Shown here: in pieces, positions 9,499 through 55,608 of the stretch | Layout: each line of letters begins with the position of its first letter | How positions within the stretch are numbered: position 1 is the stretch's first letter | Virus record (IMG/VR): IMGVR_UViG_3300037116_000062 | Span: 6,120 to 70,119 of that record | DNA length: 64,000 bases | DNA from: a virus | Reading direction: 5' to 3' (one strand) | The notes under the pieces: generated by a model | What the model was told of the DNA's origin: nothing | Database searches by the model: none | Seen by the model: the letters and a program-made list of their open reading frames with translations, nothing else | Translations under genes and position numbers: made by a program

Positions 9499-9506
9499 GA
9501 GGGCGT

Positions 9507-11308: not shown

Positions 11309-11736
11309 GTAAAGGTTCTGGGAATAGGGGATTTACAAGCAAGAGACATAGGTTCAGACGCCCGCCCTGCGCCGAGCGTATTGTTGCTCAGGAGTTTGTT
11401 TCAGAGAGGGATGCCCTCTTTGCCGAACAGTTGCTAATCGCCGTCTACGGAAGACAAGACCTCGGGACCGGGATATTGAGGAACCTAACAGATGGTGGAG
11501 ACAACCCCCCTAGGGGCACCCCGTCCAGTTATGCTAAAGCGTCTCTGTCTCTACAAGGACGCCCCGGGGGTTTTAAGGGACGCAGACATACTGAAGAGAC
11601 GAGGGAAAAGATGCGCGCTGCTGCCGCTGCGATTGGCGCACGGAGGGGTCGCAATCGCGGTTTCCTTGTCTCCGAAGAGACAAGAAAGAAACTGAGTGAC
11701 CGAGCATGGCAACAACATCACCTGTTCGTATACTAG
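11248..11736 (+). mobile_element. Free-standing GIY-YIG-like homing endonuclease with NUMOD3 tail
   Basis: FYTYLWLREDGTPYYVGKG, NLTDGG and HTEETREKM; overlaps both neighbours. Confidence 0.85.
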
Positions 11737-12362: not shown

Positions 12363-12369
12363 GGGGACT

Positions 12370-13236: not shown

Positions 13237-13244
13237 GAGGAGTC

Positions 13245-14483: not shown

Positions 14484-14971
14484 CTTTTTACACATATTTG
14501 TGGCTCCGAGAAGATGGCACTCCCTACTATGTCGGGAAGGGAACAAAAAAGCGTGCATGGCGTAAAGGGAGCCCTCCGTCAGAACGTGTCCTAATCCAAG
14601 AGTTCCCTTCTGAAGAAGACGCCTTCCTGTCTGAAAGATTTCTTATCGCCCTGTACGGGCGTGAAGATTTGTTAGAAGGATGTCTCATAAATCTTACAGA
14701 TGGTGGCGATAATCCGCCCCTAAGTACCCCCGCAAGTAGGGCGAAGGCGGCAGCGACGACAAGAGGTCAGAAGCGACCTCCGCTTACGGCGGAATGGAGA
14801 CGAAAAATATCCGAAGCTAAGAAAGGCAAGCCCCGTCCGTGGGAAGTGCTGACTGAATCGTCAAAGAAAAAGATTTCGATGGCCTTACGAGGTCGAACAG
14901 GTATTCCAAGAAGTCATAAAGGAAAACCTTGGTCTATCGCCCGACGAGCCGCTTATGAGAAGATGATATGA
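14471..14971 (+). mobile_element. Free-standing GIY-YIG-like homing endonuclease (NUMOD3)
   Basis: FYTYLWLREDGTPYYVGKG, NLTDGG and RRKISEAKKG; start set at ATG 14471. Confidence 0.85.
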
Positions 14972-15840
14972 GCCTTACTATTTTGGGCGGACGAGGTTTC
15001 GTCGGCAGCAATTACGTGAAAGCCTTCTACGACCCCGCGGTCGGCAACATCGCATCGATCAACGGTCGCGATAACTACAACGTCTTCAGTAAGGACGTCC
15101 TGTACTTTATCAGCACCGTTCACAACTACCACGTGTTTGACGCGCCCTTGCGTGACATCGACACGAACCTGACCACCCTTGTTCAGGTGCTGGAATCATG
15201 GAGAGCGCGCCCTGACGCGCGTGATGGGGTGTTCAACTTCATCAGTTCATGGTTCGTTTATGGAGGCAGCAAAATTCGGCACGACGTTCACGAGAGCGAG
15301 TATTGTGACCCGAAGGGGTTCTACTCGATCACCAAGCGTTGCGCGGAGCAACTGCTCGCATCCTACTGTGCGACGTACGGGCTGAAGTATCGCATCCTGC
15401 GATTGGCCAACGTCCTCGGGGATGATCTGAAAGCGTCCGCGAAGAAGAACGCGCTGCAGTATATGATCGGCCAGTTGAGCAGGAACGAACCTGTGCAGAT
15501 CTACGGCACGGGCGACTTCCACCGGGATTACATCCATGTGAACGACTGCGTGACCGCGATCGACCTCGTCATCACCCACGGCGATCTGAATCAGATCTAC
15601 AACATTGGCAACGGGAAGACGTGGAAGTTCAAGGATATCATTCAGCACGTCCGCGAACGCCTGGGCTCTAAGAGCGACGTAACATTCATAGAGCCAAAAG
15701 ATTTCCACAAGATTGTGCAGTCCACCAGCTTCTATATGAACGTGGACAGTTTGAAAGGGTTGGGTTACATCCCCACATTGACGGAGGAGACATTATGGGA
15801 GTCAACCTATGAAAACTTTGATAGCAGTGGTGAATGCTAG
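14968..15840 (+). CDS. NAD-dependent epimerase/reductase (SDR; possible 3,6-dideoxyhexose 4-reductase)
   Basis: GGRGFVG, YSITK (YxxxK) and RDYIHVND. Confidence 0.85.
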   Translation: MSLTILGGRGFVGSNYVKAFYDPAVGNIASINGRDNYNVFSKDVLYFISTVHNYHVFDAPLRDIDTNLTTLVQVLESWRARPDARDGVFNFISSWFVYGGSKIRHDVHESEYCDPKGFYSITKRCAEQLLASYCATYGLKYRILRLANVLGDDLKASAKKNALQYMIGQLSRNEPVQIYGTGDFHRDYIHVNDCVTAIDLVITHGDLNQIYNIGNGKTWKFKDIIQHVRERLGSKSDVTFIEPKDFHKIVQSTSFYMNVDSLKGLGYIPTLTEETLWESTYENFDSSGEC

Positions 15841-20860: not shown

Positions 20861-21376
20861 GTGTACAAGTCCGTCTTTACTAAGATCATCGACGGCTTGT
20901 ATTTGGGTGACAAGGAAGGCTTACCTGAAGCAGAGCGGCGGGGATATTCAGTTCTCGCCGCCTGCAAAGATGGCTCACCCGATTGTCACCGCGCGGTCCT
21001 CGGCTACACAGAACTGGGCGCGCCCAAGGGCAAGAACTATTACTTCGTACAGCGTGGCGACCACATGGCGCTGAACCTTATTGACGCGGAGACTGCAGAC
21101 TTCATCCCCGATGAAGCGATTGACGCAGGATTGGACTTTCTTAAACAAGAAAGAGATGCAGGGAAGAAAGTTTTCGTCCACTGCATCGCGGGCCACTCCC
21201 GCTCAGTAGGTATAATGATGCTTTTTCTCAGAGCCATTGGGGAACTGCCTGAAGGATTTCATAGGGCGTTGCACAAGTTCACCGTTCTCTATCCAGAAGC
21301 GGATATGGGAAAAGGAATGTACCAACACGTCCGCCGTCGTTGGGCGGATATGAAAGACAAGTTTCTGTCGGCTTAA
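20861..21376 (+). CDS. Dual-specificity protein phosphatase
   Basis: IIDGLYLGD and the VFVHCIAGHSRS (HCX5R) P-loop. Confidence 0.9.
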   Translation: MYKSVFTKIIDGLYLGDKEGLPEAERRGYSVLAACKDGSPDCHRAVLGYTELGAPKGKNYYFVQRGDHMALNLIDAETADFIPDEAIDAGLDFLKQERDAGKKVFVHCIAGHSRSVGIMMLFLRAIGELPEGFHRALHKFTVLYPEADMGKGMYQHVRRRWADMKDKFLSA

Positions 21377-21434
21377 TTACCCGATGGAGGGCGAGGCTAG
21401 TCCCTCGCCCAACTCTAGACTAGGAGAGATTATG
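21366..21434 (+). promoter_or_regulatory. Hairpin + RBS-pairing pseudoknot leader (copy 1)
   Basis: TGTCGG-CTTAATTAC-CCGATG, then GGGCGAGG-[CTAGTC]-CCTCGCCC; the loop is complementary to GACTAG at the RBS. Confidence 0.65.
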
Positions 21435-21896
21435 CCTTACAAAACCAAAGAAGAAAAAGCTGCGTATGACCATGCCCGAGTAGCACAAAATCGAGAAGAA
21501 AAATCTGCTTATGATAAAAACTATCGTAGCACTCACCGCACGGAAAAAGACGCGTACAGTCGCAAACATCATCTTCAGAAGAACTTCAATCTGTCTTTTC
21601 AAAAATTTTTTGAGATGCTTACTGCACAGGATAATAAATGTGCCCTTTGTAGTGACTTATTCGAAGTAACTCCCGCTATCGACCACGACCATTCGTGTTG
21701 CTCAGGAGTTAAGAGTTGCGGTAAATGTGTCAGGGGATTGCTCTGTCACCGTTGCAATACCGCTCTTGGAAGTTTCAGAGATTCTCCAGAACTTCTTCGC
21801 AAAGCAGCAGATTACATAGAAAGAAAACGAAACGAGAATTTCAATGTCCCCATTTCGCTCGAAAGCACAAGCGGGCTACCTACACAGTCATCCTGA
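21432..21896 (+). mobile_element. Endonuclease VII-family homing endonuclease
   Basis: QDNKCALC, IDHDH and VRGLLCHRCNTALG; AT-rich. Confidence 0.88.
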
Positions 21897-22326
21897 AATC
21901 CTTGGAAAAGAGGGTTTAAAAGAGTGGGACGCTTCGTCAAAAGGTAAGCAATTACCTGAACATGTGAAACAGTACGACCAAGGCGGGGTAGTTTCACCGC
22001 AGAAGGATACCTCAATGACGGGAATATTTGACCAAATTACCAAAGGCGGTGACAAACCGAAAAAAGAAATTAAAGAAATGGTGCATACCAAAAGCCACAA
22101 CGGGAAACACATTGTCACTCATAGACACCATTCGCCCGCGCATCACCCTGACGAAACGCACGTCATGAACGACATGGCGCAGTTGCACAGCCACATGGAC
22201 GCCCACGCTGGTACACCGAACGACGGCGAAGCGGCTCCCGCCGATGGCGCGGCTGCTCCGGCTCCGATGACGGCAGCCCCGTCACCCGCGCCTGCTGGCC
22301 CCGCTGGCCCTGCAATGGGGGCGTAA
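21844..22326 (+). CDS. Hypothetical His-rich protein with a YDQGG motif
   Basis: MSPFRSKAQ N-terminus; His-rich core; P/A-rich tail. Confidence 0.7.
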   Translation: MSPFRSKAQAGYLHSHPEILGKEGLKEWDASSKGKQLPEHVKQYDQGGVVSPQKDTSMTGIFDQITKGGDKPKKEIKEMVHTKSHNGKHIVTHRHHSPAHHPDETHVMNDMAQLHSHMDAHAGTPNDGEAAPADGAAAPAPMTAAPSPAPAGPAGPAMGA

Positions 22327-22327: not shown

Positions 22328-23023
22328 ATGGGAATCTATGACAAAGTAGTCAACGCCGCGAAGGGTGCTGCCGCCGCAGTGAAAGCGGGCAACTCTGAGA
22401 CGGAAGGTATTGGAAGCGAACTCGCCGAGCGCGCGAAAATGAATCGCCTCGCGATGGGAAAGAGCGACGAAGCAAAGCCTGTCGACAAGGAATCAGTCAG
22501 CCCGACCGCTGGCGGAAACTCCCCCTACGGATCCCGTAAGGGTGAGAAGAAATTGGACACGTCCTATCTGGACAAGCCCACCGCGGTCAAAGCCCCCGTG
22601 TACGACAAGGGCGGCAAGATTATCGGGGGAACCAACATCCCAGCCCGCGTTTATGATAAGGGCGGCAAAGTCGATGTGAATGACGGCAAACACCAAGTCG
22701 CGATTCTCAAGGAAGGCGAACGCGTTCTGACTGAGAAGCAGGACAAAGAGTATCAGAAGACGAAGGGCGAGCACGCCGAGCCCGACGCGGACGACTATGA
22801 CGACGGCGGAAAGGTTCACACGCCTGAAGAGAAAAACCACTTCGCCCGCTCTATGAACCATCTGAACGCAGGTGGGTTGCACCGTCACCTGGGCATTAGT
22901 GAAGACAAGCCGATTCCCCACTCTAAGAAAGTGGAAGCGTCAAAATCTGACAACCCACACGTTGCTGCGATGGGACGCCTTGCGGTTGCGATGTCGGGAT
23001 GGAAACACCCCAAAAAGAAATAG
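22328..23023 (+). CDS. Hypothetical protein with three YDxGG motifs
   Basis: YDKGG twice and YDDGG; AILKEGERVLT; GGLHRHLG module. Confidence 0.7.
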   Translation: MGIYDKVVNAAKGAAAAVKAGNSETEGIGSELAERAKMNRLAMGKSDEAKPVDKESVSPTAGGNSPYGSRKGEKKLDTSYLDKPTAVKAPVYDKGGKIIGGTNIPARVYDKGGKVDVNDGKHQVAILKEGERVLTEKQDKEYQKTKGEHAEPDADDYDDGGKVHTPEEKNHFARSMNHLNAGGLHRHLGISEDKPIPHSKKVEASKSDNPHVAAMGRLAVAMSGWKHPKKK

Positions 23024-23034
23024 TCGGAGGATCT

Positions 23035-25026
23035 GTGAACGTAAACGAACTGGTAGGCTTAGTCCAGAAACACAAGAACGACAAAAACTACCAGTTCCGA
23101 GACTGGTCGTGGGAGCAGATTGACGCTGCCGCAAAGACCAGTTTCGATCGAATCACACCCGATCAGAAAATCCAAGTCATGAAGGTCTGTGCAGCCTATG
23201 GGCTCACGGACTCGAAGCAGATCGTCCGCTTCCGATTCATGGCGCAAACAAACCTTTTCTTTCTCTGCAAGCTGCTGGGGACTTACAAGGACGTCTCGGA
23301 CAAAGAGTATGTCTGGACGGATGGCAAGGTTCACAATACGCATGAGGAAATTTGCAATTCTTTTTTCGTAGAAAAGAACCCGACGTTCCCCTCATTCAAA
23401 GAGTTCGCGGCCCAGTACATCGATAAGAAAGAGCGTCTTCTGCTCGTACCCCGCGGCGGCTACAAGTCGTCGATGGATATGGCGGATTGCGCCCAGTGGG
23501 TGATCAACTTCCCCGAAGTGACTATCCTCGTACTCTGCGGAGTCCTCGCCCTGGCGAATGACTTCGTCGGCGAAATCAAGGGACACTTCACGTTAGAGCA
23601 AGGCGGGTCCGCGGGGCTGTTTGGTAAAACCCCTCTGCGCCCGAGAACGATGCACAGTGGTACTGGATCCATGTTTCAAGTCCTGTTCCCAGAGCACTGC
23701 ATCGCGCCTGACACAGGCAAGAGTGATGAATATCAGACCCCAGCCGTCGCTGTCCGAGAGAAGGAAGGCACTGTATCTGCTGCCTCTATCGAACAGAGTC
23801 TGACAGGCTGGCACGTGTGCGTTCTGAAACTGGATGACGTTGTCACCAACGAAAACTCCCAGACTGTTGACCGCATGCGGAACATCAACAAGCAAGTCAG
23901 CATCAACCAAGCCATGTTGCACCCGTACGGATTTTACGACAAGATCGGAACGTGGTACGACACTGAAGATACTTACGGTCAAGACATCAAGAGTTCCAAG
24001 AAGTACGCCGAAGACGGCGAAGACTTCCCGATGAAGATCTACATCCGTGCCGCGTGGTGGGCAACGGAAGACGCGATCAAGCAAGGTAAGATCGCGGACG
24101 AGATGGTTGAGACGGATTACAACTATTGGTTCAACGATCCGACCAACGCATCCTCGCTGACGTTCAAGTTCCTCAACCACAAGCGGAAGACCGATCCGTG
24201 GTACGCGATTAAGTACCTCAACGATCCGACGCAGATGCATGTGATCAAGTTCCCGCGAGAACTCCTCGTGCGGCGCACTATCAACGCGGTCGAACTCCCC
24301 AGCACAGGGATGATCGTCTCCTGCGTTGACACGGCCTACTCGACCAAGACTTGGGCGGATTACACGGTCATCATCACCTCGCTGATTTACGGCGGGCGCT
24401 TCTACATCATTGACATGAAGCGTGGGCGATACAACGAATACGAACTCCCCGCAATGATTGCAGCGACGGCCCAGCAATGGAAGCCGAAGCGAATCTGCAT
24501 CGAAGAAACTGGAGCGATCAAGTACATCCAGCGGGAAGTCTATCGTGAGATGGACAAACTGAAGGTGCGGGTTCCAATCGAACTCGTCCCCCTCGGTCAA
24601 GGCAGCAAGGCCACTTCGAAGAAAACGAAAGCAGGCCCCGTCCTCAGGTTCCTGGGAGACGACAGGCTGCGGTTCATCAACACCTGCCCGTTTCTAGAAG
24701 ACCTGTACGACGAACTCTCCAAGTTCGGTACGGCGGCAAGCACCCACGACGATATCGTGGATGCTCTGTCCATCCTCATAAATCAGTTCTCATCCTACGC
24801 TGACATCGAAGGAAAGATGACGGCGTCCGGCGCGGGGTTTACCTCCGACCAGAAGATGCAGAACGCGCACAATCTGATGCACTGCGACGGTAAGTACGGG
24901 AAACTGAATCAGCGGAACGACGTTCAACTGGAGTTCCCCGACCAATCACCGCAGTCCCTATCAAGAGACGCGGCATTAGATGCGTATGAGGCATCCCAAG
25001 ATCCATTGGGCGAACTTTTTGGTTAA
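23035..25026 (+). CDS. terL: Terminase large subunit
   Basis: LLLVPRGGYKSS Walker A, VLKLDDVV Walker B, VDTA..ADYT and HDDIVDA nuclease motifs; GTG start with GGAGG. Confidence 0.9.
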   Translation: MNVNELVGLVQKHKNDKNYQFRDWSWEQIDAAAKTSFDRITPDQKIQVMKVCAAYGLTDSKQIVRFRFMAQTNLFFLCKLLGTYKDVSDKEYVWTDGKVHNTHEEICNSFFVEKNPTFPSFKEFAAQYIDKKERLLLVPRGGYKSSMDMADCAQWVINFPEVTILVLCGVLALANDFVGEIKGHFTLEQGGSAGLFGKTPLRPRTMHSGTGSMFQVLFPEHCIAPDTGKSDEYQTPAVAVREKEGTVSAASIEQSLTGWHVCVLKLDDVVTNENSQTVDRMRNINKQVSINQAMLHPYGFYDKIGTWYDTEDTYGQDIKSSKKYAEDGEDFPMKIYIRAAWWATEDAIKQGKIADEMVETDYNYWFNDPTNASSLTFKFLNHKRKTDPWYAIKYLNDPTQMHVIKFPRELLVRRTINAVELPSTGMIVSCVDTAYSTKTWADYTVIITSLIYGGRFYIIDMKRGRYNEYELPAMIAATAQQWKPKRICIEETGAIKYIQREVYREMDKLKVRVPIELVPLGQGSKATSKKTKAGPVLRFLGDDRLRFINTCPFLEDLYDELSKFGTAASTHDDIVDALSILINQFSSYADIEGKMTASGAGFTSDQKMQNAHNLMHCDGKYGKLNQRNDVQLEFPDQSPQSLSRDAALDAYEASQDPLGELFG

Positions 25027-25035: not shown

Positions 25036-27165
25036 ATGGATGACGCTTTGATTGTATCTGACGGCAATGCCGATCAACACCTGACGACCGATAGCGTCAA
25101 CAAAGACGGCATGATGAAGACGGTCGACCTAGACCTGTCCCTCGTCGTGCAGTCCGCGAGGATGTCCAAAGCGTTCATTTCGAACAAGCAATGGACACTC
25201 CTGTGGCGCGACGCTGACCTACTGTTCCAATCACCCCGACCGATGTCGACGTACGAAAATACGTACGTCCTTGAACCCAACGTTCAGCGGTTCACGGTCG
25301 CGAAGGTCTGCAACGCGGTAGTTCCGCAACTTTACAAGGGTCTGTTCTACGATGACCCACCGATGTTACTCCGCCCGCGTCCTGGCACAAGTCAGAAGAC
25401 GATCGACGCGAAGACAGCGATGTTCTCGTTCGTCCTCGACCAATGCGACTTCAAGAACCACGTCAAGTGGGGCTTGGAACAGATGGCCCACCAGGGAACG
25501 GGAATTTTCAAGTGGGGTTACGACTGGAAAGAGATTACCACTATCAAGCGCAAGGCGACTACGATCAAGGTAGAAGCCCCGCAGCCTGATGGGACCACAG
25601 ACACTATTCACATCCCGAGTGACGAATCGCCGAGTATTACAGAAACGAGCAAGGTTCTACCCTTGCCGTTCTTCGAGTGGCGGCCCTTGGACAAAGTCCT
25701 TGTCGACTCGCAACTGGCGGTCAGCGATATCCGCATGGCGCGCTGGGTGATCGACGTCCGATACATGGACTGGTATCAGCTTAGTGACATCAAGAAGGCG
25801 ATCGACGACGCGCGCGAAGCTGGTGAGACAGGCGCGGCAATCGAAGGATGGGACTTCCCAGACGACGCTGCCCTCAAGGCGATGTGGGATCGGCCATTCA
25901 ACGGCACGACCAATGAGGTGACGCAAGCCTCCTACATGGAAGGCATCATCCATCACAGCGAGAAGGAAAATCAGGACACCAGTCCCGACCCTCTCCGCCG
26001 CAAGATGGAAGTCCTCGAATACTGGGACAAGGGACGAAAGATCCTGGCCCTGAACGAAGAGAAAGTAATCTTCCGCGGCAAGAACGAATTCAAACGAATC
26101 CCGTTCCTGAGTGCGAACTGGTGGAACCGACCCCGTGCATTTTACGGCATGGGACTTGGGCTCATCGTGGGACAGAATCAACGCGTCGACCAAGGCACCA
26201 TTAACGCCATTCTTAAGATTCTGTCGTATGGCGTCAACCCTATCTATCTCCGCAATCGATCGGAGAACGCACCAACTCAGACCATCCGCACCAACCTCGG
26301 CAAGATCATGTCGGTGACGGATGTGAAAGAATCATACGCCCTACTTGAGCAACCCAAAGTCCCCTCGGACATCTGGGGAGCGATCAAGGAAAGCGAATCG
26401 GCCACCGAGTCTTCCTCGGGCGCAGACCAAACGCTCGTACAGGGCAGTTCGGCTGGACCCCGTGCAGGTATGGGACGCTCCGCTACAGGCGCAAACCTGA
26501 TGGCTGGCGCGTCCGCAACCCGACTGGACGGCCCGCTCGATAACTTCATCGAGCAGGTGTTCAAGCCGTGGTTGAGCATCATTGACATGCTCGTGTTCAA
26601 CTTCATGTCGGATGCCGCCATCCTCCACGTCCTGGGCAAGGAAATGGGTACGGAGTTCCTAACGGACGCCGACAGCCCGTTCCAGATCCAAGACTACCAC
26701 GATGCTCAGATCGAGTACGAAGTGCTTGCTGGATCCTCACTCGCTGCAAAGCGGACGATGGCCCAGAGCATGGTCATGCTCACCCAGATCCTCGACAACC
26801 CGAACATCCAGTCAATGCTGGCCGAAGCGGGCAAGAAGATCAACATCGAAGCAATCATCTCGATGTGGCTCGAAGCAAGCGAATGGAAGAACAAGAACGA
26901 CATCGTTGTTCCGATGTCCCCCGCGGACATCCAGAAGCGGGATGCGAACTCAAAAGCCGCACTCCAGCAGCAACAGATGCAAATGAAACAGCAAGGCGAC
27001 CAAGCAAAGTTCGCCGAGAAACAACAGTTGGAAGACCAAGCAAGTGACAACCGTATTAAGCGCGACATCACCCGAGAAGCAGCGAAGGCATCTTCGCTGA
27101 GTCAGACGGTTGAAGGCGTGCCGAGTACGGGTGGCTTGCAAGGTCAGATGCCGACTGTTGAGTAA
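25036..27165 (+). CDS. Portal protein
   Basis: 709 aa directly after terL; GTGIFKWG, FYGMG, RSATG and a Q-rich C-terminal barrel. Confidence 0.88.
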   Translation: MDDALIVSDGNADQHLTTDSVNKDGMMKTVDLDLSLVVQSARMSKAFISNKQWTLLWRDADLLFQSPRPMSTYENTYVLEPNVQRFTVAKVCNAVVPQLYKGLFYDDPPMLLRPRPGTSQKTIDAKTAMFSFVLDQCDFKNHVKWGLEQMAHQGTGIFKWGYDWKEITTIKRKATTIKVEAPQPDGTTDTIHIPSDESPSITETSKVLPLPFFEWRPLDKVLVDSQLAVSDIRMARWVIDVRYMDWYQLSDIKKAIDDAREAGETGAAIEGWDFPDDAALKAMWDRPFNGTTNEVTQASYMEGIIHHSEKENQDTSPDPLRRKMEVLEYWDKGRKILALNEEKVIFRGKNEFKRIPFLSANWWNRPRAFYGMGLGLIVGQNQRVDQGTINAILKILSYGVNPIYLRNRSENAPTQTIRTNLGKIMSVTDVKESYALLEQPKVPSDIWGAIKESESATESSSGADQTLVQGSSAGPRAGMGRSATGANLMAGASATRLDGPLDNFIEQVFKPWLSIIDMLVFNFMSDAAILHVLGKEMGTEFLTDADSPFQIQDYHDAQIEYEVLAGSSLAAKRTMAQSMVMLTQILDNPNIQSMLAEAGKKINIEAIISMWLEASEWKNKNDIVVPMSPADIQKRDANSKAALQQQQMQMKQQGDQAKFAEKQQLEDQASDNRIKRDITREAAKASSLSQTVEGVPSTGGLQGQMPTVE

Positions 27166-28658: not shown

Positions 28659-29690
28659 ATGAGTTTTTCTCCTAGCGGCAACCAACTCAGTAACCTGCCC
28701 CAGTCCACGGTGAAGTACTACGACAAAAGATTCCGTGAGAACCTGAAGGCGCAGACCCCCTTCGTCCGTTGTTCCGAGCGTTTGGAACTGCCGATGAAGT
28801 CCGGTAACCAGTACGAACTGTTCATGTACGTTCCGCTGGCTGCCAACACCACGCCGACCACCGAAGGCACCGTGGGTTCGTCTCTGAGCATCAACGTGCT
28901 CACGAACACCGCGACCATCGGCGAGTACGCGGATTACGCCAACTTCTCGTCCTTGTCTCTCGCTACCGCGATCGACAACACGGTCGAGAACGTCGCGAAG
29001 GAAATGTCCTATCGCTTGGGCGAGTCCCTCTCGGCTCTGGTGCGCGCGACTGCAGACGGTGCGAACAGCATCGACTCCAGCGTGCTGACTCAGCTTGCTG
29101 CGTCGAGCACCTCCAGCTTCACCGCCCTGTCGTTGTCTCAGATTCGCAACAGTGTCCAGTCTCTGGCTGGCCGCAGTGTGCGTCCGTTCAACGAGGCGAA
29201 GAAGACCTTCGCTGGCGTGATCCATCCGTTCGCTCTCGGCGATGTCCTCGCCGACAACAGCAACGACTCCCCCATCGACATCCTGAAGCACACGCCTCAG
29301 GGTCAGATGAAGATGGAAGACCTGATCTCGGTCGATCTGACCGAAGTCATCGAACTGCCCTCCACGGGCGTGGAATTCCTGCAGACCAACTTGGTCACGC
29401 AGACCACGAACTACAAGGGTCAGACTGGTCTGACTGCTCTCCGTACCTACATTTTCGGTAAGGACGGCATTTTCTCCATCAACCTGGGAGCCACCAACGA
29501 CACCACCTTCGGTGATGGCGATTGGCGCAACATTAAGTGCAACGTGGTTCAGAACGCCGAGCCGACGGTTGCCGATCCCGAAGGGTTGATCCCTGGCTGG
29601 ACCTCGTATCGTGTGCACTTCACCACGAGCTTGGGCCCAGACACCACCATCCGCATCCGTGAGATTGATGCGGCTTCGGCCATCAGCTAA
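28659..29690 (+). CDS. Major capsid protein (N4-gp56-like)
   Basis: 343 aa; LPMKSG, TEG, GVIHP, TYIFGKD and ADP motifs; followed by a terminator. Confidence 0.85.
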   Translation: MSFSPSGNQLSNLPQSTVKYYDKRFRENLKAQTPFVRCSERLELPMKSGNQYELFMYVPLAANTTPTTEGTVGSSLSINVLTNTATIGEYADYANFSSLSLATAIDNTVENVAKEMSYRLGESLSALVRATADGANSIDSSVLTQLAASSTSSFTALSLSQIRNSVQSLAGRSVRPFNEAKKTFAGVIHPFALGDVLADNSNDSPIDILKHTPQGQMKMEDLISVDLTEVIELPSTGVEFLQTNLVTQTTNYKGQTGLTALRTYIFGKDGIFSINLGATNDTTFGDGDWRNIKCNVVQNAEPTVADPEGLIPGWTSYRVHFTTSLGPDTTIRIREIDAASAIS

Positions 29691-30314: not shown

Positions 30315-30392
30315 CTTCGGACTAATTACCCGAAGCCAGAGCGACCAGCACCTAGAATGCTGGTCGCTCGCTCTTTTCTAGGAGAGAATATG
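30315..30392 (+). promoter_or_regulatory. Hairpin + RBS-pairing pseudoknot leader (copy 2)
   Basis: CTTCGG-ACTAATTAC-CCGAAG, then a 12-bp stem whose loop CCTAGAA is complementary to TTCTAGG at the RBS. Confidence 0.7.
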
Positions 30393-30809
30393 CCCCGAAA
30401 CACTGAAGCAGGAAGGCTCGCGTACAACAAATACATGCGAGAATATCGAAAGCGCCCCGAACAAGCCGCTAAAGAAACCGCACGAAAAGCGGCTTGGATA
30501 GCGGCAAACCCAGAGAACGCGGAGAAACACCGTTTGAGCAGGTTTCGCGCCGCGAGAAGGGCCAGATGGGGTAACCCAGAAGAGTACGCCGCACGTCTCG
30601 CTAAACAGAATGGTTTGTGTGCGCTCTGTGGCGAACCTTTTGACGACACTAAGTTAGGCAGCCCTGTTCAAGATCACGACCACGATACTGAAGAACTAAG
30701 AGAATTTTTGCACTGCCGTTGTAACCTTGCGATAGCAAATCTGCTGGATAGCCCTAGCGGATGTCGCAAAGCAGCGGAGTATTTAGAGAAGCACGGGAGG
30801 AGAGGATGA
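30390..30809 (+). mobile_element. Endonuclease VII-family homing endonuclease
   Basis: QNGLCALCG, QDHDH and REFLHCRCNLAI. Confidence 0.85.
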
Positions 30810-34893: not shown

Positions 34894-35838
34894 ATGGCGA
34901 TCTCTACCAAAACGATTAGCAACACGATTGACTTTTGCAAGCGGCTGAGTTTTAACCGCAACCCCGTCATCGGGAATTCTCTTGAGCCCGCGCTCACAGC
35001 GGCACAGATTGTCATGCAAGTCATCCTTGGCCCGCCGTTCGAATGGTGGTGGAATAACGAGGAACTGGTCTTCACGTGCAACCCTGTTCCGAACAGTGCT
35101 ACGAGCACCGTGGTTAGCATCGTCAGCGGCACAATCACCGTGACCGCTGCGAACACCTTCTCTACAGGCGACTTAGTCCTGCCGAAGGGTTTTGTCACGC
35201 TCACCTCTTTGAACGGTTTACTGCTGGAGGTTGTAACCGCGACCGCGTCCACATTTACCGCAGCCGTAAACCTCCCGAACGGAACCGATACTGCGGGGAC
35301 GTTCACGAACATCACCACTCAGGACTACCCCGTTGCCACACCAGAATTCTCACACATCGAGCATGCCTCGGTTCTGGACATTGACGCGACAGGCAAGCCA
35401 CTGAAGTGGTACGAACTGACCGTCAAGAACATGCTGTCTCTCGAAACTTCGGCCAACCGTCCTGAGTTCATCTCTCCCCACACGGAGAATGGGCAGGGCG
35501 TAACCGTGTTCCGCGTGACATCTGCTCCCGATAAGAAGTACCCCATCTCCATCCACATCCAGAAGGCCGCGCCCACCGTCACCAGTATCAATCAGACATG
35601 GGCACCCATCCCCGACTTCATGCAATACATCTACACCTGGGGATTCATGGCACTCATCTGGCAGTTTGCGGACGACCCGCGCGCGACCTACGCGAACAAC
35701 AAATTTGTTGCGGGCATACTCGCTCGATCCGAAGGTTTGGACGACGAACAGAAAAATATTTTTCTAAATAATTGGGATGAGATGCGAATGAGTTTCGGCC
35801 CGATGAAACAGCAAGGTATCGCAGCGCGAGGACAATAA
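34894..35838 (+). CDS. Putative adaptor/tail tubular A-like protein
   Basis: PFEWWWN, TQDY, APDKKY and PIPD; resembles ORF 32973. Confidence 0.6.
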   Translation: MAISTKTISNTIDFCKRLSFNRNPVIGNSLEPALTAAQIVMQVILGPPFEWWWNNEELVFTCNPVPNSATSTVVSIVSGTITVTAANTFSTGDLVLPKGFVTLTSLNGLLLEVVTATASTFTAAVNLPNGTDTAGTFTNITTQDYPVATPEFSHIEHASVLDIDATGKPLKWYELTVKNMLSLETSANRPEFISPHTENGQGVTVFRVTSAPDKKYPISIHIQKAAPTVTSINQTWAPIPDFMQYIYTWGFMALIWQFADDPRATYANNKFVAGILARSEGLDDEQKNIFLNNWDEMRMSFGPMKQQGIAARGQ

Positions 35839-35849: not shown

Positions 35850-36146
35850 ATGCCCCAGCTAGTCACTGTGTATGGGGGTTCCTTTCAGGACCCTAGTGGC
35901 AACCCGCTAACAGGCGGATTGACTTGCAGACTCGTGCAGGACATCGCCGAGAGTTCCAACCAAATCGCTGCAGGCCGATGGACGAAGCTCTCGCTCGATG
36001 CGAACGGGAATATATCCCCGAGCCCGGGGGCGAAACTCTGGGGTCCCGCTCTCTACGACGTGATTGCATACACCTCGCAGGGTCTGGCCGCGTGGAGTGG
36101 GCAGATTACAGTTCCAGACGTGACATCATTCAGTTTTACCCCATAG
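35850..36146 (+). CDS. Tail-fibre anchor-like small protein
   Basis: GGSFQDPSGNPL...LDANGNI...WG, paralogous to the N-terminus of 36154. Confidence 0.6.
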   Translation: MPQLVTVYGGSFQDPSGNPLTGGLTCRLVQDIAESSNQIAAGRWTKLSLDANGNISPSPGAKLWGPALYDVIAYTSQGLAAWSGQITVPDVTSFSFTP

Positions 36147-36153
36147 GAGCAAC

Positions 36154-37194
36154 ATGCCCGCAACTAAATGCGTACTAACTGGCGGGGCCTTTCAGGACGC
36201 CGAAGGGAATGTCTTGGCGAACGGTTATCTGACGATGACTCTGTCCCAGGACTCTTCCGTATCTGGCGTTGGGAACATTGCCGCGGGGATTACGATTACC
36301 ATCACTTTGGACACGAACGGAAACGTTGCAGGCAGTCCTGCGCAAGCAGTCTGGGGCAATGACGTTCTCTCGGGGAACACATTCTATAGTGTTACGGGAT
36401 ACACACTCGCGGGCCAACCCGCCTACGGTCCCAATAATCAGCAAGTCGTAGGCAGCACTTTCAATGTAGGCACGTGGGTTCCAAATCAAGTCATCTCGTG
36501 GAGCCCTTCTGTCCAATCGACTCTGCTGGAGACGAACGGGACAAAGAACGGTTCGCAGGCTACGCTGAATCTCGCGGCAGGGGCGAACATCACCCTCGCA
36601 GATAATGGAAGCGGCACGATTACGATTGCCGCTGCAGCAGGCGGGAGCAGCTTCAGTGTCACCAATCAAGGCTTCTTCATCGCTTCAGGCATGACGGACC
36701 TCGCCTCAGCTTTCGTGGGTACTTTCATCGCCCCGATAACCGACTACAGTGCTAACGAGGTGATGGTCAACCAGTTCGTCCTACAGTCGGCGTGGACGCT
36801 CTCCAGCGTATCTTACCAGCTAACCACGACCAGTTCTGGCGGGTCTAATTTCAGCTTCGGCATATATAGCGCGGCTGGCGTGAAACTCATTGATAGTGGC
36901 GCGTTCGACGGCACCAGCAGCGCTGTCCAGACCCTATCATTCACCCCGGTCACTCTTCCCGCGGGCGTGTACTACTTCGCCGCGAGCGCAACTGACCTCA
37001 CTATGCGTGGTATCGCAATGCAAACCGCCAACCCCGCGGTTATGCTGGCAACCATCAGCACTTCTTACCCATACATCGCAACCGCGGCGAACGCCACCTC
37101 AGGGGGTGTTATGCCTGCCACCCTCGGCACGTTGACCGCGATCCTTACCGCGGCAAGCTGGGAAGGTATCCCGCTTTGTATCTGGAAGGTCTAA
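36154..37194 (+). CDS. Tail fibre/spike protein
   Basis: Anchor domain, LNLAAGANITL linker and beta-rich head. Confidence 0.65.
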   Translation: MPATKCVLTGGAFQDAEGNVLANGYLTMTLSQDSSVSGVGNIAAGITITITLDTNGNVAGSPAQAVWGNDVLSGNTFYSVTGYTLAGQPAYGPNNQQVVGSTFNVGTWVPNQVISWSPSVQSTLLETNGTKNGSQATLNLAAGANITLADNGSGTITIAAAAGGSSFSVTNQGFFIASGMTDLASAFVGTFIAPITDYSANEVMVNQFVLQSAWTLSSVSYQLTTTSSGGSNFSFGIYSAAGVKLIDSGAFDGTSSAVQTLSFTPVTLPAGVYYFAASATDLTMRGIAMQTANPAVMLATISTSYPYIATAANATSGGVMPATLGTLTAILTAASWEGIPLCIWKV

Positions 37195-37207
37195 GGAAAG
37201 GTTCACC

Positions 37208-37717
37208 ATGAGTCAGATTGCAGCGAATGGCGGCCAGCCGCAGGTGGGGGATGTATTCGGGAAATGGACTCTCCTGTCTAAAACGGGACGAGGCTCCTAC
37301 GTTTGTCGCTGCGAGTGTGGTATAGAAAAGCCTATTGGCTCTACTGAATTACTTCGTGGGGCTAGAAAGAAAGGGTGTCGTCGTTGTCAGATTGGTTTTT
37401 CAAAAGAGACTGCTCGTAGGAACGAGCTATATGGCAGCTATGTCCTGAATGCAAAAAAGAGGAAGTTGGATTTTGCGCTCTCTCGTCAAGAAGCAGAATT
37501 GATGTTTGTATCCACATGCCACTATTGTGGGAAACTCCCCTCTCCCAACAATGGGATTGACCGAATGGATAACTCTATAGGGTATTTTCCAACGAACTGT
37601 GTGGCATGCTGTGGTTTGTGTAATCGCATAAAGAATGTCTTGGGTTATGAGGAGTTTTTTGCTCACCTAAAGTCGATTCTGGAATTCCGGGGGTATCATG
37701 TCACAAATCGCGGCTAA
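37208..37717 (+). mobile_element. HNH homing endonuclease carrying the first 12 residues of the downstream tail gene
   Basis: FGKWTLL, CRCECG, CHYCG and GIDRMDNSIGY...CCGLCN; N-terminus MSQIAANGGQPQ. Confidence 0.85.
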
Positions 37718-40700
37718 TGGTGGGCAACCTCAGAAGTCCCCTCGCTACGCGCCAATCTACTCGGGAAGGTTCTTTAACGGTCTGAACACAAATCGGTCCC
37801 CACTGCGTGCTGCGAGTGCGAATCACATTTACGAGAAGTTCTACAGCGACTCCTCAGGTGACGCACTCATCGCGGGTCTGAATCTGGAAGTGTCGAACAG
37901 GCTGACCCTTATCCGTCGCCCAGGCAATCCGATTTACGATAACACGCACACGTACAACGACCCGTGGCACTTTGACGAGTTCCGCGTCAACAAGTTGCAG
38001 GATGACGTCCTCGGCTCCGTGCAAGAGCAAATCTTCACGCTCGTTGACGAGAGCGCGGGAAGCCAATACGGCGCGGGAACCGTTTACTCACTGACCCCGA
38101 CTTTCGAACGCGGCGGCGACGCGACTGATGGCGGACTCAGTTTTGTGAAGGGCGCAGGCGCAGGCCAGACGTACTTCCAAGCAGTAGGCAACGAACTCTA
38201 TTTTGGCGACGGCGTCGAGAACAAGAAATGGCTGCAGTCGATAATCAACCGCAATGCCGTAGGTGCGAATGGTTTCTACCTCCAAGGACCGCCCAACAAT
38301 CCGTCGGGCGCGTACCCGTTTGGGACGTACCTCCTCGATTGGAATACGGGCAATCCCCAAGAGTTCATCGGAATCACGATCGGCACGGTGACGAATGTCG
38401 CCATGTCAGCGAACGTGCTCACCCTCACAGTAGACCTCGCAACCCCCTCAGCGGGGCTAACCGTTCCGAACGCTGATGTAAACGATTACGTCGTGAACAC
38501 GCCCTTCCAGTTGTGGGGCTTCACAGACGCGGACAACTTGTGGTTGAACGGGATTACGATTTTCCTTCAAGCGGCGTACACCCACACCAACTCCTCGTCC
38601 ACGACTTTCGTCGCGCAGGTGAATCACGCGACGAACTACACCCAGGCAGTCACATCCCCGAATTTGACTTACATCATCCAATCGGGAACCGCGCCCGTAG
38701 TCGCACAACTCAGTACGACCACTATACCCACTTACAACACGCAAGTTCCGACTGCCGCGAATCTGTACCAGAGCGGACTGACCCTAGACGGCAACACGGT
38801 CTGGGCAAATCGCGGAACTCCGTCCACGGGTGGATACAACCAGAATCCGAACGTAGAAAACTGGGGAATCCAACCCCCGACAGGGAAACCGACATACTCC
38901 GTTTCGGGGTCTGAGCAGTCGTGGCAGAAGAACACCTATTACTCCCCTGCGTCCGTCTATGTTGGCCCAGGTGGGTATCTCTGGCAAATTTCCAAGGCGG
39001 GCACCACGGGAACGGGAACAGTGTTCCCGAATCCTCCCCCCGCCGTCGGCATAGTGCCTGCTACGTCCCAACAGGCTCTAATCACGAATGTCTATATCTC
39101 AGGGAATGTCGCCTACTTCACGACGGCCACTCAATCTCTCGCGACGGGTAACATCGTGAATATTAGTGACCTCTCCGTCGCAACCTTCTTGAACGGAGAA
39201 CAGCTTACTGTTCTTTCGGGGGCGACTCCTACATCTTTCTCGGCGACCGTATCCACTGTGTCTTACCCGACCACGCCCGACTCAGGTCTTGTGACTCTGC
39301 CAGGGTATGTGTTACAGGACGGAACCGCGCAATGGACGGCGATCCAAACTCCTGCATCTCTCATCTGGGAACCGAATACGCATTACAACATCGGGTCTTT
39401 CATCATAGCGACGACGTCCGCTGGACCGCAACTATTCCAACTCAGTGTGAATACCACATCCCTTGCGTTGAGCACCGCGATTACCGCGGGGTGGATTGCC
39501 CAATCCAGCAGTTGGCAAGGCGCAGTTAGTCTATGGAATACAAACGACCCGAACGCTACCACACACGGTGGTGGTGGGCCTGTATTCTCTGCATTCCCAG
39601 GCGGCCAAACTGGACCCGTCCCCTCCCTTGATTGGAATGGCGTAGGCCCCGGCGGAACGATTATCGTTAACACGCTGAATGGCGCGGGCGCAATCATCCC
39701 GCCTCAAGTCCCTCTCCCGGGCAGCCCCGCTAATGGGCCATTCTGGGCAGCCGCGACAGGTTCTATGTTCATCCCAGCCCCGGGATCTTACGTCTTCACG
39801 ATCACAACCGAAGACGCAGGGTTCTTCTCCTTCCAGACGACAGCTAATGCGTCTGGCGGAATCGCCTCTGTGTCGGGGAACACTTTCATTCCCCAAACAG
39901 GTGGGGTCGCACGACAGGTCACGGTAGTAGATGGGTACGGTAGCCTAACAGGAGGCACGTCCCTTTGTGGCACGGACAACACTGGCGGGACAGGCACCAC
40001 AGGGATGTCCTGCACATGGACATTCACGAAGGCGGGGAACTACAACTACGAAGTGGACTACGGACACAGGACGGGGACTCCCCGTTACATGACGCTCAAG
40101 TATGGCACGGCGCTCGAAATCCCGCCCTACCCGAGCGAGTCAGGAGCAACCGCGCCCCTATGGACACCTTTCACCACCACAGGGATGCAGTATGTGAACG
40201 GTCAGATTGTATGGCCCGCGACCGCGACCGACGGACAGTACACGTGGAACAACCTTGGCCCGATGACGGATTACGTCTATGTGGCCAACACTCCATACAC
40301 GCTGCCCGCGAGCACGATTATCGATTCAAACGGCAACCAAGAAGGCGTGGCCGAAACGGGCATTTCGGATACGACTCAACCAACATGGCCCACGGCAATC
40401 AACACGGTTACCCCCGACACGGGATATCCGACCCTTCAGTGGCTTAATGAAGGCCCACTGGCCTCGTCAACCACTCCTGGCACGATCGCAGCGACGTCCG
40501 TGCAGGGCTACCTTTATTGGATTGCCCTTGTGAACACGCTGGACAATTCTGTGTCAAACCTCGGCCCTGTGTCGTTGTCGACGGGTTCGTTCATCAATGG
40601 GGTGGTATCCTTCAGCCCAGGTTCAGGATTGCCCACGGTAAATGGGGTGGTCACTGTTGACCCACAAGACGACTATGTCGCCATCTTCAGAACTGCGGAT

Positions 40701-41963
40701 GGGTTTACGACGCCTCTGCTCATCCCAGGGTTTGTCACCTCGCCGTACACGGTTCCGCTGACTCAGTACATCCGAAATGGTTTCGTGGACAACTTCCCCG
40801 ACACTGAATTGAATGACCTCGTGCAGGGTGCTGAAGCAGGCGAGAACACTCCCCCAATTGTGGGAGCAATCAATCTCACATATGCACTCAACCGCATCTG
40901 GTACAGCCTTGGAAACACCGTCTATTACACGACGGGCCCGCAAGCCCCAAGTGGGAACGGAATTGATGGCGCGTCCCCGACTAACCTCTCTCCTTGTCCC
41001 TCACAGGTCAAGAGATTGGTGCCGACGGCGATTGGTATGCTGGTGTTCACCATCAGCGATATCTATATCATCCCAGGAAACGGTACGACTCAAAGCCCCA
41101 TCCAACCCGCGCTCCCGTATCTCACGGGCGTCGGCTTGGGAAATTACAACGGACTCGACATCAACGGTGGCATCATGGGCTTCTTCACGACTGACAAACA
41201 GTTCGTGATATTCGACCCGAGTGCCGGATTGAGTTACGTGGGTTATAACATCGGCGACCAACTCCGCCTCAACAACGGCACGGCTGGTCAGTCATGGAAC
41301 CCATCCACCGCATATGTCGCGTGGTATATCAACGGCGAAGACCAAGCGTGGTTCCTTGGTGACGCTGTCAATGGCTGGTACAAACTCATCGCAACGCCTG
41401 CCCCCGAAAGCGGGAACGGCGTAGTCGCATGGAGCCCCTTCGGGACTATCGCAGGCGGATCCGTGAGTGCGATCAAGGCAACGGAAGTCAGCCCTGGAGT
41501 CCACAGGCTGCTTGTTGGACAAACAAGTGCAACGGGTAGGATCCTGAATCGTGACCTGTCCGCAACCACGGACGCGGGCTCGACAGGAATCAACGGAACC
41601 ACTTACCCCGCGTACGGAGTAATCGGATCCATCGTGTTGGCGCAACCTGGGCAAATCGCCAAGGTCGCGTTCATTACGACGGTCTGTGTTCGCACAGGAA
41701 GCCCGCCAATCCTTGGCGTTCTTCTGGACGAGGCTCTACCGTATTACACGGGCAGCTTCGACGTCCTGAAACGCTGGACGAACGATCCCCCGAACCTGCC
41801 ACAAGGTAAATCATTCTACAGGCAGCGATTTTACCTTTGTGAAGACGAGGAGACTTCGGCGTACTGCATGGACATGCAGATCATGGTGCAGTTTCCAACC
41901 GAAGCCGCGCTCAACGAACTGCAGACGCTCACCGTGTTCGGTGCCTACGAAGTTGAGATGTAA
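37698..41963 (+). CDS. Large tail nozzle/tubular-B-like protein with inserted carbohydrate-binding modules
   Basis: 1421 aa; NLEVS...LIRRPG N-terminus and NRIW propeller region; PA14-like segment and WxxNTxY repeats. Confidence 0.7.
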   Translation: MSQIAANGGQPQKSPRYAPIYSGRFFNGLNTNRSPLRAASANHIYEKFYSDSSGDALIAGLNLEVSNRLTLIRRPGNPIYDNTHTYNDPWHFDEFRVNKLQDDVLGSVQEQIFTLVDESAGSQYGAGTVYSLTPTFERGGDATDGGLSFVKGAGAGQTYFQAVGNELYFGDGVENKKWLQSIINRNAVGANGFYLQGPPNNPSGAYPFGTYLLDWNTGNPQEFIGITIGTVTNVAMSANVLTLTVDLATPSAGLTVPNADVNDYVVNTPFQLWGFTDADNLWLNGITIFLQAAYTHTNSSSTTFVAQVNHATNYTQAVTSPNLTYIIQSGTAPVVAQLSTTTIPTYNTQVPTAANLYQSGLTLDGNTVWANRGTPSTGGYNQNPNVENWGIQPPTGKPTYSVSGSEQSWQKNTYYSPASVYVGPGGYLWQISKAGTTGTGTVFPNPPPAVGIVPATSQQALITNVYISGNVAYFTTATQSLATGNIVNISDLSVATFLNGEQLTVLSGATPTSFSATVSTVSYPTTPDSGLVTLPGYVLQDGTAQWTAIQTPASLIWEPNTHYNIGSFIIATTSAGPQLFQLSVNTTSLALSTAITAGWIAQSSSWQGAVSLWNTNDPNATTHGGGGPVFSAFPGGQTGPVPSLDWNGVGPGGTIIVNTLNGAGAIIPPQVPLPGSPANGPFWAAATGSMFIPAPGSYVFTITTEDAGFFSFQTTANASGGIASVSGNTFIPQTGGVARQVTVVDGYGSLTGGTSLCGTDNTGGTGTTGMSCTWTFTKAGNYNYEVDYGHRTGTPRYMTLKYGTALEIPPYPSESGATAPLWTPFTTTGMQYVNGQIVWPATATDGQYTWNNLGPMTDYVYVANTPYTLPASTIIDSNGNQEGVAETGISDTTQPTWPTAINTVTPDTGYPTLQWLNEGPLASSTTPGTIAATSVQGYLYWIALVNTLDNSVSNLGPVSLSTGSFINGVVSFSPGSGLPTVNGVVTVDPQDDYVAIFRTADGFTTPLLIPGFVTSPYTVPLTQYIRNGFVDNFPDTELNDLVQGAEAGENTPPIVGAINLTYALNRIWYSLGNTVYYTTGPQAPSGNGIDGASPTNLSPCPSQVKRLVPTAIGMLVFTISDIYIIPGNGTTQSPIQPALPYLTGVGLGNYNGLDINGGIMGFFTTDKQFVIFDPSAGLSYVGYNIGDQLRLNNGTAGQSWNPSTAYVAWYINGEDQAWFLGDAVNGWYKLIATPAPESGNGVVAWSPFGTIAGGSVSAIKATEVSPGVHRLLVGQTSATGRILNRDLSATTDAGSTGINGTTYPAYGVIGSIVLAQPGQIAKVAFITTVCVRTGSPPILGVLLDEALPYYTGSFDVLKRWTNDPPNLPQGKSFYRQRFYLCEDEETSAYCMDMQIMVQFPTEAALNELQTLTVFGAYEVEM

Positions 41964-42039: not shown

Positions 42040-42633
42040 ATGGAGAACAATCATCCACGATTCCGCCTTCAAGGGCGGGAGCAAGAGGTTATCGCCGCCT
42101 ATCAAGGCGGCAGTTCAACTCCAACGATAGGGAAACTCTTTGGGGTAAGCCACGCTTCCATTCTGCAGGTGTTGAGGAAATTCAACGTCCCTCGACGCAC
42201 GCGAAGTGAAGCCAACATACAAACGCATTGCAAGAGGGGACACCCAATGGTGGAGGGCAACCTCTACTACATGAAGGGCGGGGTACGGAGTTGTTTGACT
42301 TGTCGCAAGGCAAATGGCAGACGTAGTCGATTTGGACTACGGCCTGAGGATATCGAAAGACGACTTCAGCAGCAGGAAGGGAAATGTGCTGTTTGTAGAA
42401 AGACTTTGAAAATCCCCCAAGCAGACCACGATCATTCCTGTTGTCCTGCGAAAACTAAAACTTGTGGAAAGTGTGTGCGAGATTTGTTGTGCAGGAACTG
42501 CAACCTCGCTGTCGGGAACGTGAAGGACGATATCTCAATAGCAGAATCCCTCGTCGCTTACCTGAAGAAATGGAAAACCCCCAATGTCCACCCTAGCAGA
42601 ACGACTGAAAACGCAATCGCTGCCGGGGTTTGA
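42040..42633 (+). mobile_element. Endonuclease VII-family homing endonuclease with an N-terminal HTH
   Basis: HTH (IGKLFGVS), THCKRGH, CAVC, DHDH and CRNCN. Confidence 0.87.
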
Positions 42634-55080: not shown

Positions 55081-55608
55081 GTGTTCTACGCGTACTTGTG
55101 GCTCAGATACGACGGCACCCCTTACTACGTCGGCAAGAGCCACGATGGGAAGAACAGTCGTGCGTTTAAGAGCGTTGGGCATCACGTTCACAGACCGTCA
55201 GAAGAGTCTAGGATAATCGTTCAACACTACGACTCCGAAGACGAAGCGTTCGCCGCGGAGAAGTTCTTGATCGCGTTTTACGGCAGGGCGGACTTAGGAG
55301 AAGGTTGCCTGAGAAACCTCACGGACGGCGGGGAGGGTACGACAGGCGCAATCCGCACGGAGCAGTGGAAACAGAACATCTCCAAGGGGTTGACGGGCAA
55401 GAAGAGAACTGGGCCTCAATACCAACGTACTGAGGAGCATCGTCGGCAACTTCGGGAGAGAATGAAATCGGGAGATGCAGCTAAGGCAGGACGCATAGGG
55501 GGTAGACGTATGGTAGAGAATCTAAAAGGTAGGTTTACCTTAGAGCAACGGCAAGCATGGTCTAAAAAAGTGCATGCAGCCCGTTGGGGGAAGGTGTCAA
55601 ATTCTTAA
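55081..55608 (+). mobile_element. Free-standing GIY-YIG-like homing endonuclease
   Basis: FYAYLWLRYDGTPYYVGK and NLTDGGEG; NUMOD3-like repeats. Confidence 0.85.

Follow-up and report, generated by a model that had tools for sequence, protein, structure and literature searches.

A predicted HNH nuclease gene headed by the first 12 codons of a phage virion gene that restarts downstream with a diverged 5' end

Introduction

Mobile DNA can enter a gene and leave it intact by bringing with it a slightly different version of the end of that gene, as e14 does in icd and as elements that integrate into tRNA genes do, in these cases by means of site-specific recombinases and an attachment site and not of nuclease break and repair. 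Among homing endonucleases, the nearest phage counterpart is the T4-type MobA element of the essential topoisomerase gene 39/60, for which the portions of the preprint consulted describe an insert-encoded copy of the deleted target segment, homR, with 67-81% DNA identity to the parental gene, a nick site in the middle of homR with 28-36 diverged bases on each side, open reading frames (ORFs) that overlap out of frame by a few to ~30 nucleotides (nt), and relatives without the element, including some that have lost the nuclease and retain the flanking changes (bioRxiv 10.1101/2022.08.31.505936). A second precedent is given by the fungal mitochondrial "mobile ORF" gene hybrids, found in Allomyces atp6 and in Glomus atp6, atp9, cox2, and nad3, in which the native duplicated end shares 91-98% identity with relatives and the inserted end 64-81%, with the protein almost unchanged, as far as the excerpted report describes them (PMC3630166). 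The free-standing seg and mob endonucleases of T4 ("intronless homing") sit between genes, and the gene-splitting exceptions listed in the part of the review consulted are Aeh1 nrdA, T4 gene 39/60, and phage 25 gene 43 (PMC2988022). Here, we analyze a locus in a 64-kb stretch of DNA (hereafter, the window) out of the 70-kb IMG/VR virus record IMGVR_UViG_3300037116_000062, which represents an uncultured phage from peat. In this locus a predicted HNH nuclease gene begins with the first 12 codons of a large virion-module gene, and the virion gene itself begins anew behind the nuclease with a strongly diverged 5' end.

Results

Two ORFs of the window open with the same 12 residues, MSQIAANGGQPQ: the HNH ORF at 37208-37717, which encodes 169 amino acids (aa; 157 codons of the nuclease proper behind the 12 borrowed ones), and the ORF of the large virion-module gene at 37698-41963, which encodes 1421 aa (all features given between positions 36154 and 42633 lie on the + strand). 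Copy 1, or version 1 (37208..37243), reads ATG AGT CAG ATT GCA GCG AAT GGC GGC CAG CCG CAG and now forms the N-terminal leader of the nuclease, whereas copy 2, or version 2 (37698..37733), reads ATG TCA CAA ATC GCG GCT AAT GGT GGG CAA CCT CAG and provides the working first codons of the virion gene. The copies differ at 11 of 36 bases, spread over 9 of the 12 codons, and none of the 11 differences changes an amino acid, just as the first-pass annotation had described. That all the differences are silent fits two orthologous working alleles from different lineages and not the decay of a remnant. The 12-residue identity at the two starts is not due to chance. A window-wide search for shared 8-residue peptides returned, besides the start pair, only paralogous GIY-YIG genes (with overlapping and reverse frames). 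The second ATG lies 490 nt downstream of the first, the large ORF runs from 37698 to 41963 with no internal stops or gaps, and the nuclease ORF stops at 37717, 20 nt inside the large ORF and in a different frame. The nuclease stop TAA (37711-37717) is built from codons 6 and 7 of version 2 (GCT AAT); version 1 in the same place (GCG AAT) would leave the nuclease frame open.

The nuclease ORF now lies behind the resident ribosome-binding site (RBS) of the virion gene and starts with that gene's first 12 codons. The RBS, AAGGAAAGG (37193..37201), has counterparts in relatives, which carry GAAAGG or AAGGAG at equal distance from the ATG. A Shine-Dalgarno sequence is present only at ATG 37208, and the GTG at 37244 lacks one. 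A run of five G residues (GGGGG, 37689..37693), 4 nt before the second ATG and within the 3' end of the nuclease gene, is a possible substitute RBS for the large gene. RNA structure at the two starts was no more stable than in shuffled sequences (z 1.89, and 0.62 at the second start), and a scan for promoters and terminators gave matches at chance level.

The 169-aa protein is predicted, from sequence profiles and a structural model, to be an HNH (beta-beta-alpha-metal) nuclease. It matches the endonuclease VII/HNH families of PHROG (E values of 8.6e-13 and 7.7e-12), with nothing in Pfam at an E value of ≤1e-2 (0.01), and a profile built from ten homologues matches the HNH restriction enzyme PacI (E value of 2.2e-10). 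The AlphaFold model has a predicted local distance difference test score (pLDDT) of 84.1, with residues 1-5 below 50 (disordered), and Foldseek pairs it with PacI (probability of 1.00) and with the Gme HNH nicking endonuclease (0.99). In a 10-sequence alignment, all 13 invariant columns are retained in the window's nuclease, with C104, Y106, C107, D118, R119, D121, N130, C131, C135, C138, N139, and K142 as invariant residues and His105, in a CHYC motif, between two of them. Homologues carry 6-10 residues of their own ahead of a VGxxFGxxTV motif, which in the window begins at V13, right after the 12 shared codons; the borrowed codons thus stand in for the native leader of the nuclease, and translation from the borrowed start at ATG 37208 appears likely. 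The nuclease-specific DNA (37244..37697, 454 nt), found in no relative, has a GC content of 0.435-0.45 between flanks of 0.54-0.61 (window mean, 0.554; standard deviation, 0.036), a low-GC island of the foreign composition expected of a free-standing homing endonuclease gene. A search of viral contigs with the single protein returned no close HNH relatives. Among 80 loci with homologous HNH genes, none has a start peptide in common with the neighboring gene, and the flanking repeats seen in L078/86 resemble tandem HNH pieces.

To place the insertion point, we compared the window with 32 related loci (22 distinct 5' ends), fetched by back-translated patterns and protein alignment; two pattern scans of genome contigs had returned no related loci. 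In all 32, a stop and an RBS are followed by a version-1-like start, ATG AGT/AGC CAG AT..., that runs straight into K13 (consensus, ATG AGT CAG ATT GCA GCC AGC GGC GGA CAG CCA CAG), and tblastn found an HNH gene in none of them. The nuclease is therefore present or absent at one site among colinear relatives, as is typical of free-standing homing endonuclease genes. The first-pass annotation had foreseen nuclease-free relatives with version 1 fused to KSPRYAP; the fusion of a version-1-like start to K13 is what we find, but the residues that follow are K-Q/P/A/S-P-K-Y-A. Against the 12 closest relatives, copy 1 differs at 4-9 of 36 nt, with each variant base occurring in some relative, while copy 2 differs at 8-14; the same comparison between pairs of these relatives gives a median of 6 differences and never more than 11. 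To the right of ~36570, BLASTN finds an island of similarity (37196/37203 to 37242/37243, RBS plus copy 1) in 9 of 14 relatives, at 83-88% identity, and this similarity stops exactly at 37243, the end of copy 1. Since the relatives continue from codon 12 into K13, the nuclease DNA starts after codon 12 of a version-1 gene, which bears out the in-frame insertion at codon 12 proposed earlier.

The 5' end of the virion gene behind the nuclease is hyper-diverged over a tract of ~67-72 nt (37701..37767; gene nt 4-70, codons 2-24), which is centered on the point that matches the insertion site. Over the first 80 ungapped codons, compared with those of 11 relatives, the ratio of window-to-relative to relative-to-relative distances is 1.90 for codons 1-12 and 1.70 for codons 13-24 and then falls to 0.85-1.08 from codon 25 on. 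The mean numbers of differences behind the first two ratios are 11.1 and 14.4 for the window against the relatives and 5.8 and 8.5 for the relatives among themselves; copy 1, with a mean of 5.8, is as close to the relatives as they are to each other. Bases that the window has in common with at most 2 of the 11 relatives number 10, 10, 3, 3, 4, 8, and 0 in successive 36-nt bins. Codons 13-24 differ from the relatives at 13-16 of 36 nt, compared with a maximum of 13 among the relatives, and version 2 together with these codons is 56-78% identical to the relatives, compared with 75-89% for copy 1. In the family as a whole, the 5' end of the gene is the most conserved of seven codon bins at the DNA level. 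The tract holds two replacements, Q14S and K16R, the latter by exchange of a whole codon (AAG to CGC) at a residue invariant across the 12 closest relatives. The earlier proposal that the gene had been repaired with a recoded 5' end therefore survives in part: copy 2 is strongly diverged and the gene is whole, but the divergence covers codons 1-24, includes two replacements, and is found also without the nuclease.

This last point comes from Logan de Bruijn contigs of peat runs other than the likely source of the record (X2, X3, and X4). Contigs with zero differences bridge the upstream gene, copy 1, and the HNH gene (X2 record 1, 36000-37577; X3 record 8, 36820-37466) as well as the HNH gene, copy 2, and the downstream gene (X2 record 2, 37566-37726; X4 record 17, 37477-38137). 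In X2, a 203-nt contig (depth of 3.1) carries 30 nt identical to 37697-37726, that is, version 2, with no nuclease; the 173 letters before them are unlike the window and end in ...TATAAGGAGTCC / ...ACATTATAAGGAGTCC, a stop and a family-type RBS, the latter four bases ahead of the version-2 ATG. Version 2 is thus a circulating natural allele and was not made for this insertion. The first-pass annotation had held that relatives lacking the nuclease should not carry the second version; here, one does, against 32 loci that show the opposite. A further contig, X2 record 3 (697 nt), begins at 37697, and its first listed difference from the window is at 37902, after which divergence is ~13.6% (69 letters and 5 gaps in all). 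The ~205 nt at 37697..37901 are apparently common base for base to the window and the nuclease-less X2 strain, in a listing that covers positions more than ~200 nt from the contig ends; by their density, the 27 rows outside this listing fit the far end. Contig depths (5.8, against 3.1 and about 6) are consistent with a shared segment followed by a strain-specific one, and we infer that the two X2 pieces belong to one second strain (strain B). A search for the 30-letter upstream end of this nuclease-less contig gave no match in the window, in 123 loci, or in viral contigs, and the first 232 residues of the large virion protein, used as a query, matched no fragment of strain B.

The locus lies in the structural module of a phage whose family has genomes of ~95 kb, with direct terminal repeats in one member. 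The module comprises a terminase (22999-25026), a portal-like gene (25036-27165), a major head gene (28659-29690), a gene with a weak Gp80 fiber match (34894-35838), an upstream virion gene of 346 aa (36154..37194), and the large virion-module gene (37698..41963), which is conserved in complete ~95-kb relatives; the order of the last two is maintained in relatives. The large gene had been called a tail gene, a label for which position in this module is the sole basis, since its protein matches no family in Pfam or PHROG, an AlphaFold model of its residues 1-300 is unusable (pLDDT of 37.4), and the Atlas matches all have scores below 0.9. A blastn search with 3.3 kb of the window against phage GenBank records matched nothing. 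With the first 232 residues of the large protein, a protein search gave 25 matches at an E value of ≤1e-20, the top one at 74% identity, and the sole member of the protein's 90% cluster is a C-terminal fragment that is 100% identical. A partial homologue of the large protein (P0021, 43% identical) is labeled at NCBI as belonging to a Halobacteriota archaeon metagenome-assembled genome, possibly a hint at the host or else a binning artifact. The upstream gene aligns by BLASTN with 14 relatives in its 5' part, until about 36550-36573, and not over its 3' ~650 nt: at 36574-37195, nothing colinear was found in the 14 relatives, the sole match being a 53-nt noncolinear stretch in L005. From its sequence, the 3' two-thirds of this gene (36550-37195) look like a swapped module of the receptor-binding type with a conserved linker, conservation being seen in the 5' part and in the 48 nt that follow the gene.

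Counting the start-capturing HNH gene, the window holds seven homing-endonuclease-like genes, and the other six have no convincing flanking duplicate. Three are GIY-YIG-like paralogues (11248-11736, ~14486-14971, and 55081-55608; PHROG 314, "homing endonuclease") with long common peptides of the FYTYLWLREDGTPYYVGKG type, two of them among genes for sugar-nucleotide enzymes (glycosyltransferase, epimerases, and aminotransferase; 8722-15840). The remaining three are HNH/endonuclease-VII-like (21384-21896, 30357-30809, and 42040-42633); the first of these lies inside a 1-kb low-GC island (21201-22200, GC down to 0.417). The gene at 42040..42633 (PHROG endonuclease VII/HNH), outside the duplication, is an ordinary variable intergenic gene that follows the large virion gene: L122 has a 40%-identical HNH gene in this place, L120 and L121 have nothing there, and in L123 a homologue lies beyond the next gene. 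It thereby behaves exactly as a T4 seg/mob-type gene, present or absent between genes. In two loci with homologues of the start-capturing nuclease, L022 and L041, the HNH gene directly follows a truncated capsid ORF and lies between two copies resembling a group I intron core (GAGACTAA...GATAGTCCGA; 2302-2487 and 3281-3406 in L022, 2344-2465 and 3271-3383 in L041), with a weak, subthreshold match to Rfam RF00028 (E value of 0.13). These homologues may be intron-borne relatives of the nuclease.

Discussion

In this study, we used sequence comparison to ask how a predicted HNH nuclease gene came to be headed by the start of a virion gene that is itself complete. The reading that we favor, with a probability of roughly 60%, is that a free-standing HNH homing endonuclease gene entered the virion gene at codon 12 and became fused in frame to its resident start, and that import of a 5' allele, probably immune to cleavage, made the virion gene whole again. 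The existence of the junction between version 1 and the nuclease means that the nuclease entered a version-1 gene, whose survival required a new 5' end. We infer the start used by the nuclease, the cleavage site, the immunity of version 2, and the order of events as follows. A break would have occurred at or near codon 12 in a phage carrying version 1, and the repair template would have been a coinfecting phage in which the nuclease directly preceded a version-2 gene. Homology inside the gene would have mended the right side of the break, whereas the left side would have been joined illegitimately, there being no homology in the 3' half of the upstream gene; this join would be in frame, as only in-frame products would keep the nuclease alive. 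The virion gene would then restart 490 nt downstream, from its own ATG behind the G-run and with the version-2 5' allele, whose divergence is much greater at the DNA level than at the protein level. That version 2 is probably spared by the nuclease is suggested by the position of the tract, by how strongly the family conserves the DNA of the 5' end, and by the analogy with MobA. The ~205-nt tract beside the nuclease, followed by ~13.6% divergence, may reflect localized conversion, in either direction, of the kind seen beside homing endonucleases; the nuclease-less strain may be an empty-site ancestor of the donor lineage or a phage converted to the immune allele without the nuclease.

Several observations weigh against this reading. 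The donor-type arrangement, with an intergenic nuclease that has its own leader and version 2 behind it, was found in none of the 32 loci, and no record lies near version 2, the smallest distance to any relative being 8 of 36 positions in the first half of the tract and 13 of 36 in the second. Capture of a start is a single instance, given that none of the 80 homologous HNH loci shows it. Cleavage, expression, and the start codon used are all predictions, and strain B consists of two short, low-depth Logan contigs from one run. Moreover, version 2 without the nuclease and behind a normal RBS is possibly a sublineage's own allele, unrelated to immunity. Finally, the S14/R16 signature (K-S-P-R-Y-A-P) recurs in protein fragments of two other clades, P0012 and P0027, so that part of the oddity of the tract is natural variation. 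P0012 is otherwise like L105 (54 of 56 residues identical at positions 25-80), and the N terminus of P0027 is like that of L109; the recurrence could stem from a short mobile tract or from changes that arose in parallel at a single site. A scan of viral contigs for patterns coding for KSPRYAP returned nothing.

An exchange of modules without any cleavage is an unlikely explanation that nevertheless deserves the most weight among the rivals. It holds that version 2 is the resident allele of the sublineage, diverged by ordinary drift and near the nuclease by coincidence, and that a block made up of the variable 3' half of the upstream gene, the RBS, 12 version-1 codons, and the nuclease was imported illegitimately. 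The X2 contig, with version 2 behind a normal stop and RBS and no nuclease, agrees with it, and so does the upstream 3' half, which has no relationship to any of the 14 relatives compared, as would be expected if modules are often exchanged. Other clades also have KSPRYAP, and the codons TCA, GGT, and CAA are found in distant relatives. But a block of this kind could come only from a donor that already had a nuclease after codon 12 and a restarted gene, which only shifts the problem of origin one step back, and lineage drift would mark the whole gene, whereas the aberrance is limited to codons 1-24 and centered on the insertion point.

We consider it doubtful, and somewhat less probable than a module exchange, that the arrangement is an adaptation of the nuclease, which sits behind the sole DNA-conserved island to the left of the virion gene, namely, the RBS and codons 1-12, adjacent to a hypervariable upstream gene. 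If so, this island would give the nuclease a portable left homology arm and an expression signal for any member of the family, and the nuclease would in addition bring a restart of the host gene that it cannot cut. Such a resistant allele could then also spread alone (as in strain B and with R16 in three clades), so that "vaccinated" 5' ends would sweep through a phage population under attack by the nuclease.

A duplication of 36 nt in place at insertion, followed by silent changes selected against self-cleavage or repeat deletion, which is the first-pass proposal in its literal form, is very improbable. Such changes would destroy the recognition site and the repeat homology alike, and of the 11 codons open to silent change, 9 have changed, at or above saturation. 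Gradual recoding is nevertheless hard to reconcile with a tract that extends 36 nt past the duplication and with an allele that exists where there is neither a repeat nor a nuclease to protect against, and at least 11 stepwise changes within 36 nt are implausible when copy 1 is typical of the family and the remainder of the gene is ordinary. To our knowledge, HNH cuts do not give rise to 36-bp target duplications.

We give almost no credence to removal or bypass of the insert at the RNA or protein level (by a group I intron, an intein, ribosomal bypass, or a frameshift), with copy 2 as an incidental feature. It is true that homologous HNH genes in L022-L024 and L041 adjoin group-I-intron-like cores in a capsid gene and that the T4 MobA element employs bypass. 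However, Rfam returned nothing in the window region (L003) at an E value of ≤1, the 490-nt insert is nearly all ORF and leaves no space for a ribozyme core, and a complete restart, with an ATG and the same 12 codons, makes excision unnecessary. An intein is excluded because it would have to be inserted in frame, whereas 490 nt cannot be divided by 3 and the two ORFs are in different frames. Equally negligible is an assembly artifact in which two strains of the metagenome were stitched together, for although two strains with at least 30 identical bases at 37697-37726 do co-occur, zero-difference contigs span both junctions in runs other than the likely source.

On the favored reading of a nuclease that entered at codon 12, the locus shares features with each of the described systems and coincides with none of them. 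As in the MobA element, at least as the preprint's consulted portions present it, an HNH homing endonuclease lies within a phage ORF, in neither an intron nor an intein, and the element brings its own diverged version of the segment that it targets; the tract in the window, centered on the insertion point, closely resembles homR with its diverged bases to both sides of the nick. MobA, however, lacks the parental segment, which has been deleted, its host gene yields two separate polypeptides, and immunity comes from a bypass cassette of 50 nt. In the window, by contrast, the parental 36 nt are kept as the start of the nuclease gene, the host protein remains one full-length piece, and no bypass is seen. 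The likeness to the fungal hybrids, so far as the excerpted report goes, is that an endonuclease ORF lies at the end of a gene, sometimes in phase there, with a foreign terminal copy and a native duplicate, the native copy in the window likewise being nearer to relatives (4-9 against 8-14 differences in 36 nt). Those hybrids involve 3' ends in organelle genomes and LAGLIDADG or GIY-YIG enzymes, with the native remnant left over downstream, whereas in the window an HNH enzyme is found at the 5' end of a phage gene and the native remnant provides the translation start of the nuclease. What the nuclease has in common with seg and mob is a small gene, of the HNH or GIY-YIG type, that some related phages carry at a given site and others lack, with variation in the flanking sequence; fusion to the start of a host gene with a duplicated 5' end is not described in the part of the review consulted, either for these genes or for the gene-splitting exceptions. 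Our search of the open-access literature also returned no phage nuclease fused to a host gene start with a duplicated 5' end.

Homing endonucleases have been thought safe in coding sequence only within introns or inteins, or by splitting the gene. The locus described here would represent a third, cheaper route in phage, in which the nuclease takes over the start signals of the host gene and the gene is re-headed with diverged first codons, leaving the host protein unchanged. Taken together with the 3' ends of mitochondrial genes and with MobA in the middle of a gene, this case suggests that carrying a spare, diverged piece of the target may be a general trick. For annotation, it serves as a warning that short N-terminal identities between adjacent ORFs can flag such insertions. 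A nuclease of 169 aa, a target ~70 nt long, and a putatively immune allele that occurs in nature together make the locus a compact, testable system for studying how target-site immunity originates and how it spreads with and without the nuclease.

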